This document shows positions 2,291-32,543 of a stretch of 64,000 nucleotides of DNA, piece by piece (the stretch's first letter is position 1; the number at the start of each line of letters is the position of its first letter). The stretch lies in NCBI RefSeq assembly GCF_017348835.2, contig NZ_CP071375.1. One strand, 5' to 3'. This DNA comes from Escherichia coli (GTDB lineage: Bacteria; Pseudomonadota; Gammaproteobacteria; Enterobacterales; Enterobacteriaceae). The notes under the pieces are model-generated. The model was given only the letters and a program-made list of their open reading frames with translations, had not been told where the DNA came from and did not search any database. Both the position numbers and the translations under genes were made by a program.

Positions 2291-2316
2291 GCGCCATCGT
2301 TAGATGGCGCTTTTTA
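2291..2316 (+). terminator. intrinsic terminator downstream of ydcL
   Basis: GC hairpin gcgccatc-gtta-gatggcgc followed by TTTTTA, 9 nt after the ydcL stop. Confidence 0.7.
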
Positions 2317-2805
2317 TCCGGTGCGCCGTAAAACCCCGTCCTTCAGGGCGGGGATATAAGGCGCGGTTTTCCACCTAACAGGTGTTTGCTGTTGTTCAAT
2401 GTATTGGCGGATGACGGATATTGGCGCACCTCCGCAGCTACTGGCAAAATAGCCAGGACTCCACAAAACGCCTTTGTAGTAATACCTGACTGCAATATCT
2501 GGTCGATCTCGTCGCAGTAACCTACCCGATACGCCTTTGAGGCTGTTTACCAGACTGGATATCGCCAGTTTGGGAGGTTAGTTAATTAACAAATGGACGT
2601 GATCTGGTTCGCCATCCATTTCAACCAGTTCAGCTTCAAAATCAGCACATACATTTGAAAAGTAACTGCGTAGTTTTTCTGTCGCGTCATGGTCAAAAAT
2701 CTGGCGTCGGTATTTGGTGACAAAGACCAGGTGAACATGCATCAGGGAAACACAATGCCTTCCACGCCGGATATCGGTTTCTTTTTTCACAGACCAAAGT
2801 ATCAT
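2314..2805 (-). pseudogene. IS200-family TnpA (Y1 HuH transposase) interrupted by one in-frame TAA
   Basis: 75-aa ORF 2578-2805 with HuH-type motifs (HVHLVFVTKYRR, DHVHLL) stops at TAA; the same frame continues downstream with TnpA-like C-terminus (SLKGVSGRLLRR, LWSPGYFASSCGGAPISVIRQYIEQQ). Confidence 0.65.
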
Positions 2806-2812
2806 TTGACCT

Positions 2813-4021
2813 GTGAAACGATTACAGGCATTTAAATTCCAGTTAAGACCAGGTGGTCAACAGGAGTGTGAAATGAGGCGCTTCGCAGGCGCATGTCGTT
2901 TCGTTTTCAATCGTGCTCTGGCACGTCAGAATGAGAATCATGAGGCAGGTAATAAATACATCCCTTACGGGAAAATGGCTTCCTGGCTGGTTGAGTGGAA
3001 AAATGCCACTGAAACGCAATGGCTTAAAGATTCTCCCTCACAGCCATTGCAACAGTCACTGAAAGACCTTGAGCGGGCTTACAAAAACTTCTTCCGGAAG
3101 CGGGCTGCTTTTCCCCGATTCAAAAAGCGGGGACAGAATGATGCATTCCGCTACCCGCAGGGCGTTAAGCTCGATCAGGAAAACAGCCGTATTTTTCTGC
3201 CGAAACTGGGCTGGATGGGCTACCGGAATAGCCGTCAGGTCACGGGTGTTGTGAAAAATGTCACTGTCAGCCAGTCCTGCGGTAAGTGGTACATCAGTAT
3301 TCAGACAGAAAGTGAAGTATCCACTCCGGTTCACCCTTCAGCATCAATGGTCGGGCTGGATGCTGGCGTGGCTAAACTCGCCACGCTGTCAGATTGCACA
3401 GTCTTTGAGCCTGTAAACAGTTTTCAGAAAAACCAGAAGACGCTGGCGAGACTTCAGCGACAGTTAAGCCGCAAGGTCAAATTCAGCAACAACTGGCAGA
3501 AGCAGAAACGCAAAATACAGCGACTGCATTCCCGTATCGCAAATATCCGCAGGGACTACCTTCACAAAGTCACAACGACCGTCAGCAAAAACCACGCAAT
3601 GATAGTCATTGAGGATTTGAAGGTCAGCAACATGTCAAAGTCAGCAGCGGGTACGGTCAGCCAGCCGGGGCGCAATGTCCGGGCAAAATCAGGTTTAAAC
3701 CGTTCGATACTGGATCAGGGCTGGTATGAAATGCGCCGCCAGCTTGAGTACAAGCAGCTCTGGCGTGGCGGTCAGGTGCTTGCTGTTCCGCCAGCGTACA
3801 CAAGTCAGCGTTGCGCGTGCTGTGGTCATACAGCGAAAGAAAATCGCCTGTCACAAAGTCAATTCAGATGCCAGGTATGTGGATATACAGCGAACGCCGA
3901 TGTAAACGGCGCTCGTAACATTTTAGCGGCGGGGCACGCCGTTCTTGCCTGTGGAGAGATGGTGCAGTCAGGCCGCCCGTTGAAGCAGGAACCCACCGAA
4001 ATGATTCAGGCGACAGCCTGA
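2813..4021 (+). CDS. insQ: TnpB (IS605 OrfB family, RuvC-like RNA-guided nuclease)
   Basis: 402-aa ORF with GTG start; RuvC-I GLDAGV, RuvC-II IVIEDL, zinc finger CxxC...CxxC, Ruv[12 protein letters not shown]. Confidence 0.9.
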
Positions 4022-25136: not shown

Positions 25137-26086
25137 TGCTCTCCCTGATTGCTTTAATGAAAAAGTCATATAAGTTGCCATGAACAATGTTTATTCATCC
25201 TGGCGATGATAGTTATCACCATTATTCTTTATGGGTATAAAACTATCGGCGCAGAATCCTACCTTTTATCGTGTAACGATGCAAAATAATCCCGCTATAC
25301 ATATGTGGGGATGAAGGCGGCGGCGACAAAATAGCAACCTGATGAAATTATGACGGAAACAACCACTATTAGTTTGATGATACCCGACTGCAGTCCAACT
25401 CTTTCGCCACTCGTTCGTCGCTCTGAAAGCCTGTGGTTGCAGTGGACACTGGTGTGGTTGGTCTTCGCTGTTTATCATTGAATAGTGAGGGGCTAGCACA
25501 TGACGGGTTTTAGGGGTAATACGCCAAATACCAATACAATTGCTGATTAGATGTGCCAGTTACCGACGTTACAGAAAGTGCCAAAAAATGTAAGAGGGAT
25601 GTCGGGTGATAAACGCGCTATTGCCCAACAGGAGTTTCTGGAATTAGTCCTGTTCCATGGTCATTACAACTCTTAAAACATTACTTCAATATAATTAATG
25701 TGTATATCATTCTCGATATTAATTTATGAAGTGAATTTGATATATTCCGAATTCTTAATTTACATTACTAATGTATGGGGCATAACGTTAAGATTGATAT
25801 GTGCAGATTAAGATATCAGGGTGGGGCGGTAGCGTTTACAGATATTAATCAATTGATGAGAATTATGTTAACTGCGTAATCATTTTCATCGGTTATTGAT
25901 ATTGAAGATAGATTAATAAAAATGCTGATAATTAATGTTAAGAAATAGAAATGGGAAACGTTGATAACTTGCTTTGATTTCATTTTCTATGAAGATGATG
26001 CCATCAATACTGTATAAAGTAAGAATGTTGAAAATCAAAGAGCGTTTGTGTTTTATCTGAAAGATATTATATCCAGGGGAAAGGAT

Positions 26087-26617
26087 ATGTCTTTAAGGAG
26101 AATGACATCTGGTGAATTAACATTGGCTAGATCGATTTTTGAGAATACAATTGATTATAGCAAGGTATGGATCCACAATGAAAAATATCTGCCTGGTCAA
26201 GGGGAAAGAACAGCGATGACCCCAAACGGGGAAATGTATTATCCTGATGCTGTTTATAGTTCAGATTATTCATCGCAAACAATGCCTGGTGATCGTGAAA
26301 CAGTAGCAGGTGCTTCTCACTTGTTTATTCATGAAATGATGCATGTTTGGCAATATCAGAAAGGGTATGCAGTTAAGTTGCGTGGTTTATTTTCCTGGGC
26401 GGCAAATTATCATTACGTTCTTAATTTACAGTCAATTTCTTCTTATTCCATGGAACAACAAGCATCTATAGTTGCTGATTATTGGCTATTGATTAACTAT
26501 GGACTGGTGGCTGATTTGGCAAATGTTAACTATGTAGGTGATACAACTGAATCAGTTAACACTCTATCGGAAAAATACAAAAAGGTGCTTAATTTATTTC
26601 CTGCGGGTGTCATATGA
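26087..26617 (+). CDS. DUF4157-like putative zinc metallopeptidase (HExxH); candidate polymorphic-toxin / T6SS effector domain protein
   Basis: ORF with HLFIHEMMHVWQYQ motif; start at ATG 26087 after AGGGGAAAGGA; lies in AT-rich DNA; absent from K-12 at this locus as recalled. Confidence 0.6.
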   Translation: MSLRRMTSGELTLARSIFENTIDYSKVWIHNEKYLPGQGERTAMTPNGEMYYPDAVYSSDYSSQTMPGDRETVAGASHLFIHEMMHVWQYQKGYAVKLRGLFSWAANYHYVLNLQSISSYSMEQQASIVADYWLLINYGLVADLANVNYVGDTTESVNTLSEKYKKVLNLFPAGVI

Positions 26618-26970
26618 AGAGGTTCTTTTTGTTTTTCTTTTTGTCGGGATGCACTGTTGGTGATTATGTTCGCCCATTGTTACCCGGTAATGTATATTTA
26701 CAAGATGGACGGGTTTGTTCAAAACCAGACGATGGAGATATTATTTCAAATTATATTTTATATGAAGGTAAATATGGCAATGCAATAAAGCTGAAAAGAG
26801 TAACAGGTCAGTTCGATCCCGTATGTATTGACATAAGTGAGCTATCTCCAGATGTTATTTATATCGGGCAATATATGCTCTCCTCCGGAAGTAAAAAAGA
26901 ATACTATGGTTTTAGGATAATTAGATCCGGAGTACGTATTTTAAGACTTGATGATAACCATATCAAATAA
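26614..26970 (+). CDS. small lipoprotein, candidate cognate immunity protein
   Basis: 118-aa ORF, signal peptide plus lipobox FFLSGC; ATG overlaps upstream stop (ATGA). Confidence 0.6.
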   Translation: MKRFFLFFFLSGCTVGDYVRPLLPGNVYLQDGRVCSKPDDGDIISNYILYEGKYGNAIKLKRVTGQFDPVCIDISELSPDVIYIGQYMLSSGSKKEYYGFRIIRSGVRILRLDDNHIK

Positions 26971-27190
26971 CAGATTAAAAATTTTATTAGTTTCATTAAT
27001 GTGCTTTAGGTGAATGTTTTCACCAGGTTAACATGACGGTGCATTCTTCAAGGCATATATGGTTGATAGTATCTTCAGTAGCTCGCATAAGTATTGAGAT
27101 GTTTTACGCCAGTTACGAATATATTGCATATTTTATTCTCTGTAAGATTTCTTATTAGCACTTAGCCATTTCTAGTTAAAAGGATTAATT

Positions 27191-29185
27191 ATGAGTTTTG
27201 CAGCTACAGATTATCCATCCGGCGCACTAACTGGATCGGGTACACATAACGTGACTTTGAGCGGCAGCGCAGTTCCTGATGGAATGTTACTGTTTGCAAG
27301 CTTAGGGGGTACAGAAACAGTAGGGGAACTATTTACTTATTCTATTAAATTAAAAACTCCTGACATCCTGAACCTGGGCTATGTTTCCCCTGCCGCAAAC
27401 CTGCAGCTCAAACCGATGGTGGGCAAAGATCTGTGCGTCCATATCGAACTGGATGGCGGCGGAAAACGTTATATCAGCGGGCTGGTGACGGCGGCACGCG
27501 TGGCTGGTCATCAAGGACGTTCGGTGGTGTATGAACTGCGGCTCGAACCGTGGTTAAAAATACTGACCCACACTAGTGACTACAAAGCGTTTCAGAATAA
27601 AAACGTGGTGGACATCCTGGATGAGGTACTGGATGAGTATCCCTGGCCAGTGGAAAAACGGCTGGTGGAAAATTATCCGACTCGCGCCTGGCAGGTGCAG
27701 TACGGTGAAACAGATTTCGCTTTTATTCAGCGCCTGATGCAGGAGTGGGGTATCTACTGGTGGTTTGAGCACAGCGAGAACAGTCACACGTTAGTGCTGG
27801 CTGATGCCATTAATGTCCACAAGGCATGCGCAGATTCGCCGCTGGTGTGTTATTACCAGAAAGGGCTGAAACTGGACAAGGAGTTTATCCATACCATCAC
27901 AGCAAATGAAAGTCTGCGCAGCGGACAGTGGGTGCTGAATGATTTCGACTTTATGAAGCCGCGTTCACTGCTGAAGAGCACCGTGGCTAATCCGCGTGAA
28001 ACCGGCCTTGCTGAATATGAGCACTACGAATGGCCGGGAGATTACTTCACAAAGAGTGAAGGTGAAATGCTGACACGCATTCGCATGGAAGAACAGCGTA
28101 GCCCCGGTAGTCGGGTACAGGGCAGCGGCAATATTCGTACCCTGATGACAGGTTTTTCCTTCACCCTGGAAAACTATCCGACAGCCGAAGTGAACCGGGA
28201 ATATCTGCTGGTACAGACCACGCTATTTATACAGGACAATGCGCAACACAGCGGCCAGGAGCAGCATTTCTCTTACTCAACCAGTTTTGAACTGCATCCC
28301 ACCAGCGAAGTTTACCGCCCACAACGAACCCTGAGTAAACCCCACACTAAAGGCCCGCAGAGCGCCATCGTCACCGGCCCGGCAGGGCAGGAAATCTGGA
28401 CAGATAAATATGGCCGGGTGAAAGTTCAGTTTGGCTGGGATCGTTACGGTAAGAATGACGAAAACAGCTCCTGCTGGGTCCGTGTCAGTTATCCGTGGGC
28501 GGGTAAAGGATTCGGTGGCATTCAGATCCCGCGCATTGGTCAGGAAGTACTGGTGGATTTCAAAAACGGTGATCCGGATTTACCGATAATCGTTGGGCGT
28601 ACCTACAACCAGGACACCATGCCACCGTGGGGACTACCGGGCGCAGCGACGCAAAGCGGGTTTTACAGCCATACTATCGGCGGCGGCCCAACCAATGCCA
28701 ACGCACTACGTTTTGAGGATAAACCTGGCGGTGAAGAGGTCTGGCTACATGCCGAAAAAGATCAGCGGATTGAAGTAAATAATAATGAAAGCCACTGGGT
28801 GGGCAATAATCGCCTTAAAGTCATTGATAAAACAGAAACAGCGATAATTGGTGAGGAACGTTCTCTTACAGTTCAGATGGATGATACCTCCCTTGCCGGA
28901 CAAAATAAAACGATTCAGGCCGTACAGAATTTACGCCTTGCTGCGGGAGATTCCATAATTCTTAGTTGTGGGAAAACTATCCTGCAAATGACCAGTGACG
29001 GAATATTTAATATAACCTGTAAGAATTTTAATATTACTGCAACAGAAAATGGAAAGATAAATACACAATCAGGTCAGCTTGATTTAAATATGAATGACAG
29101 GGCTGCAGATATACTTCCGCCTGGAGCATCGGAAAAAACAGCCCTTCAGTTGGCGATAGACGTCGCCTTCATGACTAAAAAATAA
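27191..29185 (+). CDS. vgrG: VgrG type VI secretion spike protein (orphan, Rhs-associated)
   Basis: 664-aa ORF with gp27/gp5-like VgrG signatures ([45 protein letters not shown]). Confidence 0.88.
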
Positions 29186-29235
29186 ATAAAAACCATCATT
29201 AAATAATTTATTAATTAAAAAGGACTCATATCATT

Positions 29236-29688
29236 ATGACGGAGTATTATCTCAATGAAACTGTTGTAACTTTTCCCGGGAATATTATTCAGGACAGCAC
29301 TATTAATATGCTGCGCCTCAGCGATCCCGACGCTGCACTCATTATCAGTCGGGGCCAGATGCAGGAAGGAGACGAATTAGCCTCCCAGATTGAACAGCAA
29401 ATGAAAAAACTGGAGAAACAGGTAAAGGATCTTCACTACACGCCCGTTCAGGTAACACGGGTAGGGATTAATGACGGTGAACAAGGGCTGGAAATACAGA
29501 GCCAGTTTCTCAGGGGTAACGAGCAGGTGTACCAGTGTCAGGTGGCATTTGTGTTGCCGGGTGAGCGAGTCATGATGGCCTTCACCTACGCCAGAACCAC
29601 ACCGCTGACCCCGGCAGATATGACGCGCTGGGCTGAAATTAAAAAGAATCTGCGCTTCAGGATGCGGCAGGAAGCCAGGACGAATTAA
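29236..29688 (+). CDS. DUF1795-family Eag chaperone for prePAAR effectors
   Basis: 150-aa ORF between vgrG and the prePAAR-Rhs gene, the canonical chaperone position. Confidence 0.7.
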   Translation: MTEYYLNETVVTFPGNIIQDSTINMLRLSDPDAALIISRGQMQEGDELASQIEQQMKKLEKQVKDLHYTPVQVTRVGINDGEQGLEIQSQFLRGNEQVYQCQVAFVLPGERVMMAFTYARTTPLTPADMTRWAEIKKNLRFRMRQEARTN

Positions 29689-29706
29689 TCATACAGGGAA
29701 CGGGAC

Positions 29707-31077
29707 ATGGAAGAGGCATTCTGGGCGGCAAGACAGGGTGATGCCCTGCTGCATACGTCGTTTATGGCAGATGTGCTGGGGGCGGTGCTGGAGGTGGCCG
29801 CAAATGTCGTTATTGATGCCCTCATTGTCGGCACAACCTCGTTACTGGCGACGTCAGTGGGGATCACGATGGGGTGCACGGCCGTCGTGCTGACCGGTTT
29901 TGTGGCGGGTGTGGCGATGGTGTACACCGGCGTGACAGAAAAGGTCAGCGAAGCCTGTTCAGCCCTCGCAAATATGCTTTTCCCGCCTCAGATTGAAGGT
30001 TACATCCTCACCGGCTCTGGTGACACATGGATCAACAGCAAACCTGCCGCGCGGGCAGCGGCTACTGCGGCATCGCGGCAGGACATTGAGGCGCAGGACG
30101 CGCAGGCGAAGGCGGAACAGGAAGAAGCGCAGCGTCAGGAGGATGCCAGAACGTTCCGGGATGTGGCCGGGGAATATCTGGAAATGGCGGGGGCCATAGC
30201 CCTGGCGGTTAACCCGGTGACAGGGCCTGTGCTGATGTCCCGGGCGCTGCACGACCAGCTCAGCACGGAAGAAGGGCGTTCTGAAATGGTGGATGGCGTG
30301 ACACATTTTGTGTCGGAACTATGGCAGCCCACTGTGGCCAGTGCGGCCCCGGGCTCCACCCCGACCCCTGACGATAAAATCGACTGCCATAAACATCCTT
30401 CCTCACTGACGCAGTTTCTCGCACAAAAAAAAGCCGCCTTTCTGGATGCCCCCCTGGGAACGGCCCTTAACCTGCTGAGTCCGGACGGTATGCTGGAAAC
30501 CGCCTTTCAGGGAGTGAATGCGGTTATTGGCAGCATCAGTAATCTGTTCAAAGGCGATGACGAGCCGCCCGCAGCGGAATATATCGCGGAAGGCGCGCGG
30601 GATGTGCGTATCAACAGCCAGCCGGCGGCACGCAGCGGGGCACGCTGTACCTGCGAGGCCAGGGTGGTGAATGAGCCGGGGAACGGGGCGTTTGTGTCAC
30701 CGGATGTGCGCATTGGCGGTCCGTTACTGGTGGCCAGGGATATCAGAAGCGGCAGGTCGCAGATAACCCTGGTGGCAACCGTGGCGCTGATGTTTCTTCG
30801 CCCGGGCAAAATGCTTTCTAAAATCGCCTGTTTTGCTGCCAGTGTCGGGATGAGCATGCTGACGCAGAAGGCCACCAGTGCCCTTCCGCATCCGGTCAAT
30901 GCCGCCACCGGGGCCAAATACCTGGCCGATGACGATGACTTCGATTTCAGTCTGCCGGGCCACTTTCCGCTGGACTGGCAGCGCGTGTACAGCAGTCGTG
31001 ACGAACGCACGGAAGGAATGTTTGGTCAGGGCTGGAGTGTGATGTATGAAGTCAGCCTCGTGCGCACACCGGGTATC
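29707..31077 (+). pseudogene. Rhs polymorphic toxin, N-terminal fragment (prePAAR, TM helices, PAAR, start of Rhs core) truncated by deletion
   Basis: prePAAR motif AARQGDALLH at residues 7-16; hydrophobic helices; PAAR-region homology (HPVNAATGAKYL...FGQGWS); reading frame then runs into nhoA-derived sequence. Confidence 0.75.
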
Positions 31078-31475
31078 GGTTGTTGCAGGAGGGTGATGAT
31101 TGGGTGTTGCAGTTTAATCATCATCAGCATTGGCAGTCGATGTACCGTTTTGATCTCTGCGAGCAGCAACAAAGCGATTATGTGATGGGCAATTTCTGGT
31201 CGGCGCACTGGCCGCAGTCGCATTTTCGCCATCATTTGCTGATGTGCCGCCATTTGCCGGACGGCGGCAAGCTGACACTGACCAATTTTCATTTTACCCA
31301 TTATGAAAATGGGCACGCGGTGGAGCAGCGAAATCTACCGGATGTGGCGTCGTTATATGCTGTGATGCAAGAACAGTTTAGTCTGGGCGTGGACGATGCG
31401 AAACATGGCTTTACCGTGGATGAGTTGGCGCTGGTGATGGCGGCGTTTGATACGCACCCGGAGGCGGGAAAATAA
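31078..31475 (+). pseudogene. nhoA: nhoA (arylamine N-acetyltransferase) 3' fragment lacking 5' half
   Basis: Translation LLQEGDDWVLQFNHHQHWQSMYRFD...THPEAGK matches the NhoA C-terminal region as recalled; no N-terminus or start codon present. Confidence 0.75.
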
Positions 31476-31479
31476 TTTA

Positions 31480-31550
31480 TGTCAGGTTGCCGGATGCGGC
31501 GTAAACGCCTTATCCGGCATACATTAGCCCGGTTGTAGACCTGACAGGCG
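31480..31550. repeat. REP element(s) between nhoA remnant and yddE
   Basis: gccggatgcggcgtaaacgccttatccggc core with flanking gtcagg/cctgac inverted repeat. Confidence 0.75.
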
Positions 31551-31570
31551 AAGCGCATCAGACAACGGTT

Positions 31571-32464
31571 TCAGAGTTCAATTGCCCATTCGGCATGAAA
31601 CAAAATCACCGCCGCGCCAGAAATGGTGACTTTTTCCGGTTGGTTATCACGAATTGTCACCGTCACTTCAATCACGCCGTCACGCCCCAATGCGCGCCCC
31701 TGATGGCCTTTAACACGCAGCACCTTGCCATCGTGGGGCAATACGTTGTGATGTACCAACCATGCACCCATCGGGCCATTGGCATTGCCAGTCACCGGAT
31801 CTTCCACAATACCAATCGCAGGCGAGAACATGCGACCATCGGTTTCGTTTTTGCCTGGGCGGATCTGGAACGGGAAGAAACCATTGCAGCCAATCTGTTT
31901 GCTGATAGCGCTCAGCGCAGCAAGATCAGGCGAAAGGGCGTCGATATCCACTTCTGGTTTCAACGGGATCATCACTTTTGAGTGTCCTGTTGTTGCCACC
32001 TGAATTGGCAAGCCTGCCAGAATATCGTCCTCAGTGAGATGAAGCGCGTTGATAATCGCCGCACGTGTTTCACCTTCCAGCGGTGGCTCAAAGCCCGGCG
32101 TACCTTGTTCCAGCGAAATACGATAATCATCGTTGTGCTTTTCGATAGTCACGCGATGTTTTCCTGCCAGTGACGTTTGCCAGATCGTGCAATTTCCTAA
32201 ACCTAACACCTTCGCACGTACATAGTGCGCAGCTACTGTCGCGTGACCGCAAATCGGCACTTCAACCGTTGGCGTAAAGTAGCGGATGCGCACATCGCTG
32301 TCGTCGCTGTGCAGCAGAAAAGCAGTTTCCGAATGGCCTAACTCGCGGGCGATAAGCTGCATTTGCGCTTCGCTAAGATTATCGGCGGGGAAAACAACAC
32401 CGGCAGAATTGCCGCGAAATGGTTGAGAGGTAAAAGCATCGACGTGGTAAACCTGCGGTTTCAT
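31571..32464 (-). CDS. yddE: YddE PhzF-family isomerase-like protein
   Basis: 297-aa ORF of PhzF fold family at K-12-equivalent position. Confidence 0.88.
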   Translation of the reverse strand: MKPQVYHVDAFTSQPFRGNSAGVVFPADNLSEAQMQLIARELGHSETAFLLHSDDSDVRIRYFTPTVEVPICGHATVAAHYVRAKVLGLGNCTIWQTSLAGKHRVTIEKHNDDYRISLEQGTPGFEPPLEGETRAAIINALHLTEDDILAGLPIQVATTGHSKVMIPLKPEVDIDALSPDLAALSAISKQIGCNGFFPFQIRPGKNETDGRMFSPAIGIVEDPVTGNANGPMGAWLVHHNVLPHDGKVLRVKGHQGRALGRDGVIEVTVTIRDNQPEKVTISGAAVILFHAEWAIEL

Positions 32465-32543
32465 TAACGTTCTCCTGTGGCTGGAGAACTATCATAGCCT
32501 GCAAGTGGCCGGAGAGCGAAGGGCTATCCGGCCAGGGTGAAAA

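Follow-up and report, generated by a model that had tools for sequence, protein, structure and literature searches.

A truncated rhs gene joined to the 3' half of nhoA in pig-associated Escherichia coli

Organization of the locus

The window (the whole stretch of 64,000 bases analysed here) spans the genes from tehA through ansP, the rhs/nhoA junction, yddE and narVWYZ-narU to ddpD. It corresponds to positions 2472843-2536842 of the chromosome of E. coli PE164 (NZ_CP114128.1), with three mismatches in 64,000 bases, and sites 38802, 39299 and 50720 account for all of the differences from the current RefSeq record of this strain; they may reflect a different assembly version or an isolate nearly identical to PE164. 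PE164, a hybrid aEPEC/ExPEC strain of serotype O108:H9, was isolated in China from a piglet with diarrhoea, as given in its record and in the publication on this strain (PMC12233904), which does not mention nhoA, Rhs or T6SS.

Two intact genes that are partners of the truncated rhs sit upstream of it. The vgrG gene (27191..29185, + strand) encodes a T6SS spike protein of 664 aa that matches NCBIfam TIGR03361 above its curated cutoff (E=2e-167) and is called a Vgr family protein in the PE164 annotation. It is followed by a gene of 150 aa (29236..29688, + strand) annotated by RefSeq as ‘DcrB-related protein’, and the identical product matches Pfam PF08786, the former DUF1795. In view of this family identity and of the Eag chaperones that accompany class I prePAAR Rhs effectors (Ahmad et al. 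2020, PMC7773334), the gene is a putative Eag-type chaperone gene for the rhs N-terminus.

The rhs gene itself is reduced to a stump (29707..31075, + strand) comprising the first 456 native codons of a class-I-like prePAAR Rhs effector gene of approximately 1,540-1,550 codons. As far as 31075, the stump is 99% identical to the rhs genes of intact relatives. A stump of nhoA with codons 149-281 and the stop codon (31074..31475, + strand) is joined to it, recognizable by its alignment with K-12 NhoA and by the RefSeq annotation. In RefSeq, a ‘DUF6531 domain-containing protein’ at 29707-31074 is noted as lacking its C-terminus, and an ‘arylamine N-acetyltransferase’ at 31065-31475 as lacking its N-terminus. 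Further to the right, yddE (31571..32464, − strand) is intact according to its open reading frame, annotation and BLAST collinearity, so that collinearity with other E. coli is maintained beyond the junction.

Between ansP and vgrG, two small overlapping open reading frames of 176 aa and 118 aa are located at 26087-26970 (+ strand). The first is annotated by RefSeq as ‘type IV secretion protein Rhs’ and has no significant match in Pfam or NCBIfam, and the second shows a weak match, below cutoff, to ‘putative T6SS immunity periplasmic lipoprotein’ (NF045617, E=3e-8). The two look like an orphan toxin/immunity pair.

Base-level structure of the junction

A base-by-base comparison with E. coli GF3-3 places the joint at 31073..31075, within the interval 31060-31090 in which a deletion junction had been predicted from the sequence of the window. 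The match to the rhs genes of intact relatives runs through 31075 and the match to nhoA starts at 31073, so that three bases, GTA, are common to both parents. The last rhs base before the joint is rhs nucleotide 1368, and nhoA resumes at codon 148/149. Alignment to other E. coli genomes, which had been proposed for defining breakpoints and any microhomology, thus fixed the breakpoints and left a microhomology of 3 bp only. A longer overlap of 11 bp (31065-31075) was suggested by BLAST and was discarded, as an ungapped comparison revealed it to be a gapped artefact.

A microhomology of at least 3 bp arises in about 5% of joins placed at random in this region, and the overlap thus does not stand out strongly from chance. 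The imperfect similarity around GTA, GCGCACACCGGGTA vs GCCACACGGAGAGTA, does not exceed chance, with 21% of random site pairs scoring as high (Monte Carlo), and the overlap itself is weak evidence on the mechanism. Neither an IS end nor an IS remnant, a repeat or rhs-like sequence is present at the joint, as seen in the sequence of 31040-31110 and in the annotation. The junction as such is a deterministic structural feature and not a statistical one.

The original prediction described an Rhs-like translation switching to the C-terminal sequence of NhoA within a few codons. Both peptides are encoded, the second being 99% identical to residues 149-281 of K-12 NhoA, and the switch falls in the predicted interval, but the two strings lie in different frames, a point that had been missed: codons begin at 31072 in rhs and at 31074 in nhoA. 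The fusion therefore exists at the DNA level, and an in-frame Rhs-NhoA hybrid protein is not encoded. The rhs frame stays open to give an ORF of 492 aa (29707..31185), in which ...FGQGWSVMYEVSLVRTPG is followed by IGCCRRVMIGCCSLIIISIGSRCTVLISASSNKAIM up to the stop. Codon 457 of this ORF starts at 31075, and from there 36 codons of nhoA DNA are read in the wrong frame, forming an out-of-frame tail (31076..31185, + strand, including the stop) that terminates in ...TPGIGCCRRVMIGCCSLIIISIGSRCTVLISASSNKAIM with the stop codon at 31183-31185. The nhoA frame, 31074-31475, reads YRLLQEGDDWVLQFNHHQHW...EAGK, and the NhoA peptide quoted in the prediction corresponds to (L)LQEGDDWVLQFNHHQHW....

The corresponding interval in related genomes

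Relatives were identified by a search with the ansP-to-vgrG segment in 5,426 complete E. coli genomes, of which 224 have the same left side. This search replaced the use of the best rhs matches as reference relatives, which had led to a different locus, kdp-ybfA (rhsC in K-12). The small pair of open reading frames upstream of vgrG is kept in the 224 genomes that carry the island.

The closest left side among the 224 was found in GF3-3, with 99.1% identity over the ansP-to-vgrG segment. The gene order in this genome starts with ansP, the small orphan pair, vgrG, the DcrB-related gene, an rhs gene of 4.6 kb and an Imm8 immunity gene, proceeds with orphan rhs fragments carrying HNH/SMI1 and other modules, two symE genes and an ISAs1 remnant, and ends with a GGDEF gene, a sulfatase pseudogene, pptA, yddH, nhoA, yddE and the nar genes. 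Compared to GF3-3, 12,305 bp are missing in the window. Compared to the Dutch isolate 23S01245-7, the missing DNA amounts to 5,941 bp, consisting of the rest of rhs, one immunity gene, symE, pptA, yddH and the 5' half of nhoA, and in KW21 the interval is approximately 16 kb long (from its annotation) and includes an integrase/primase element. All three genomes possess an intact or near-intact rhs as well as pptA-yddH-nhoA between matching flanks, and the lost content that is constant across these relatives comprises rhs from codon 457 to its end, an immunity gene, pptA, yddH and nhoA codons 1-148. How much was lost would thus hinge on the gene content of the true ancestor, with about 5.9 kb as the lower and about 16 kb as the upper figure.

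The interval is highly variable among the relatives. Orphan rhs C-terminal fragments and immunity genes (HNH/SMI1, HYD1 ADP-ribosyltransferase) were seen in GF3-3 (29673-33334) and KW21 (29664-39890), together with repeated symE and, in KW21, also a primase/XerC-type integrative element. Three genomes hold three different contents downstream of rhs, with a span from rhs to nhoA of about 5.9 to about 16 kb. The left flanks of the closest relatives are 98.9-99.1% identical to the window and the right flanks of the same relatives approximately 97.6%, a gap which implies that the region also underwent recombination.

The rhsE locus of K-12 occupies the same position (ansP to nhoA/yddE/narVWYZ) and likewise holds a decayed, non-functional rhs, but the two genomes have kept opposite ends. 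K-12 retains the 3' part of rhs without its N-terminus, ydcD, ISAs1 copies, pptA, yddH and an intact nhoA, and has no vgrG, whereas the window retains vgrG, the chaperone gene and the first 1,368 nt of rhs, all of the DNA from there to nhoA codon 148 being gone. In BLAST comparisons, K-12 matches the window up to 25301 and again from 31065. The stretch in between (25302-31064) has no high-identity counterpart in K-12, where yncG, yncH, the 5'-truncated rhsE, ydcD and two ISAs1-family genes are found instead. As a reference for the left side, K-12 was dropped as uninformative, given that vgrG and the rhs N-terminus are missing there. As to the expectation that the genes between rhsE and nhoA of K-12 had been lost, pptA and yddH are indeed gone, but K-12 is a poor guide to the lost interval, since ydcD and the ISAs1 genes are strain-specific and rhsE is a 5'-truncated pseudogene without vgrG. 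GF3-3, 23S01245-7 and KW21 are closer models of the ancestral locus, and pptA, yddH and the 5' half of nhoA are the only genes that stay constant in the lost part.

Remnants of rhs and nhoA

The retained 5' 456 codons of rhs, along with vgrG and the DcrB-family gene, are 98-99% identical to those of intact relatives. The stump carries a prePAAR motif (AARQGDALLH, residues 7-16), a single hydrophobic region at residues 18-77 according to hydropathy, a PAAR motif (Pfam PAAR_motif, residues 291-321, E=2e-5) and a DUF6531 domain (Pfam, residues 395-452) that is cut at model position 55 of 74. The Pfam prePAAR_I model gave only a weak match (E=0.86) and the score of NCBIfam T6SS_PAAR_dom was far below cutoff. 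There were no matches to RHS_repeat or RHS of Pfam in the 492-aa product, and a Pfam scan of an intact relative located all RHS repeats and the RHS core domain (PF03527) after residue 456. The original prediction had an Rhs core fused to nhoA; rhs is indeed the gene that was joined, but the joined part is the N-terminal module preceding the repeats, with prePAAR, transmembrane region, PAAR and partial DUF6531. The predicted loss of the Rhs core, the toxin tip and the immunity gene is corroborated, as all of them lie downstream of codon 456 in intact relatives.

Compared to class I prePAAR Rhs T6SS effectors (PMC7773334), the stump shares the AARxxDxxxH motif, one N-terminal hydrophobic region and PAAR, and the locus also shares an adjacent vgrG and an Eag-family (DUF1795/PF08786) chaperone gene. 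In contrast to such loci, it is devoid of the Rhs/YD-repeat shell, the RHS core, the C-terminal toxin and the immunity gene; nhoA DNA follows directly after codon 456, and immunity genes were found only in the relatives. The stump thus does not qualify as a functional class I prePAAR Rhs effector, because shell, core, toxin and immunity gene are missing. It would code at most for a toxin-less protein of 492 aa that has prePAAR, a transmembrane region and PAAR and ends in a nonsense tail of 36 residues.

The nhoA stump aligns to residues 149-281 of K-12 NhoA, starting at Y149. Functional NhoA proteins (NF011621/PF00797) are about 281 aa long; in comparison, the stump lacks full length, the curated score and the catalytic triad, covering profile positions 150-281 of 281 in NCBIfam NF011621 with a score of 295.4 vs a cutoff of 493. 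The intact NhoA of GF3-3 covers positions 1-237 of Pfam PF00797. The 5' half is gone as predicted, and the missing residues 1-148 include Cys69 (in RRGGYCFEQ), His107 and Asp122, presumably the NhoA catalytic triad as known for bacterial arylamine N-acetyltransferases. The stump is thus left without promoter, start codon and catalytic triad.

A second copy elsewhere was sought with a concatenated query of a PE164-specific marker (window 29200-31072) and the pptA-yddH-nhoA 5' region of GF3-3 at megablast sensitivity. PE164 and F2_81, the second genome with the junction, each had one matching place, and control genomes each had one place more than in a marker-only search. At this sensitivity, the chromosomes of PE164 and F2_81, which are the replicons covered individually by this search, accordingly lack pptA, yddH and the 5' half of nhoA altogether. 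The prediction that the strain is without NhoA activity gains good support from the lost triad and the single chromosomal locus, and NhoA activity is most probably absent.

Distribution of the junction

The left side of the island is shared by 224 complete genomes and the nhoA 3' half is present in nearly all genomes, and the junction occurs in only two of the 5,426 genomes searched: PE164, from a pig in China, and F2_81, from a pig rectal swab taken in Australia. The two differ at four sites in 18.8 kb and are thus related but separate sequences. Two of these four differences are non-synonymous and located in the island, namely Ser/Thr at VgrG codon 323 (28157) and Asp/Glu at rhs codon 131 (30099), which is too few to speak on selection. 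A literature search on F2_81 returned nothing relevant.

The exact 492-aa junction ORF was also found in the draft genome GCA_019365205.1 and in Logan assemblies including ERR9804580, SRR30937708 and SRR31611469, and a 48-nt string across the junction was confirmed in those draft and Logan loci. The same exact 48-nt string had no matches in JGI metagenome contigs.

Origin of the junction

The most plausible explanation, to which we assign a probability of roughly 0.93, is a chromosomal deletion specific to one lineage, a clone of pig-associated E. coli that includes PE164 and F2_81. The ancestor would have carried an island on the ansP side with the small orphan pair, vgrG, the eag-like chaperone gene, a full-length prePAAR-PAAR-Rhs effector gene and its immunity gene, continuing with variable orphan toxin/immunity/SymE modules, pptA, yddH and nhoA. 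One illegitimate (homology-independent) recombination event would then have fused nhoA at codon 148/149 to rhs nucleotide 1368 over the GTA overlap, e.g. by replication slippage or by misrepair of a break at the 3-bp overlap, turning both rhs and nhoA into pseudogenes. The flanks are collinear with those of relatives that bear the intervening DNA, few bases are shared at the joint and there is no IS or long repeat, which is the pattern of an illegitimate deletion. The single step and the route of joining are what we infer from this pattern.

Other origins of the joint are far less probable. An adjacent deletion driven by an IS element, or homologous recombination among rhs or orphan repeats, would find suitable substrates in this region, as ISAs1-family elements or remnants and repeated rhs fragments are located in the matching interval of GF3-3, KW21 and K-12. 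However, a deletion of the former type usually leaves the IS at the joint, and no IS element, IS remnant or rhs-derived repeat occurs at or beside it; moreover, the nhoA coding sequence on the right side is unique and resembles rhs no more than expected by chance, and the interval of 23S01245-7 has no annotated IS anywhere. The absence of an IS end or repeat at the joint thus makes both variants very unlikely. Alternatively, the vgrG-rhs island could have inserted into nhoA, the junction being the end of the island, which would be in line with its accessory nature (absent from K-12, left side in 224 of 5,426 complete genomes). This is highly improbable given that the left end of the island abuts ansP exactly as it does where an intact nhoA lies downstream, that rhs is cut in the middle of the DUF6531 domain and that the 5' half of nhoA is found nowhere else on the chromosome.

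A chimeric join made while assembling the repetitive rhs region, a doubt raised along with the original prediction, is conceivable in principle because the PE164 genome was assembled from Illumina reads with Unicycler (PMC12233904) and rhs loci are rich in repeats and prone to collapse in assembly. The identical joint is nevertheless present in F2_81, an independent complete genome from another continent, as well as in a separate NCBI draft and several independent Logan run assemblies, and the parents share 3 bp only, which leaves nothing for a graph assembler to collapse. Misassembly is therefore effectively excluded.

Implications

Decay of rhs loci and deletions of the microhomology type are commonplace, and the RefSeq annotation already treats the two stumps as partial pseudogenes; the deletion is an ordinary one. 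The junction adds one further example of rhs locus decay and carries little weight beyond strain bookkeeping. Nonetheless, a phenotype can be predicted for the clone, which would be devoid of NhoA activity (arylamine/N-hydroxyarylamine activation, detoxification), PptA and YddH. The loss of the Rhs toxin together with its immunity gene could make the clone sensitive to relatives that keep this toxin. Further, the unique 48-nt junction is a handy PCR or k-mer marker for the pig-associated lineage, which has been recovered in China, Australia and several public sequencing runs.

A more far-reaching interpretation is that the toxin-less rhs stump, rather than being a dead remnant, has been kept and is expressed, serving in T6SS spike assembly as a ‘blank’ PAAR tip, or that losing the Rhs toxin/immunity pair, PptA, YddH and NhoA together was adaptive and marks a pig-associated O108:H9 aEPEC/ExPEC clone that has spread globally. 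We regard this as speculative and unlikely.

Three further features of the window lie outside the rhs/nhoA locus. In the ydcL-ydcO interval (2314-4021), an IS200/IS605 tnpA pseudogene with an internal stop adjoins an intact insQ, which encodes a TnpB-family RNA-guided endonuclease. The stretch 40991-44835 (− strand) contains the T3SS effector gene espR1 and, after it, a fragment of a truncated leucine-rich-repeat gene and an ompC-like porin pseudogene with a frameshift, at the position where frameshifted LRR and yddL remnants are located in K-12. Finally, the osmC-ddpF interval (55859-62604) harbours an accessory cluster with genes for 3-hydroxybutyrate dehydrogenase, a GntP permease, 3-hydroxyacyl-CoA dehydrogenase, thiolase, the A and B subunits of a CoA transferase and a LysR regulator.
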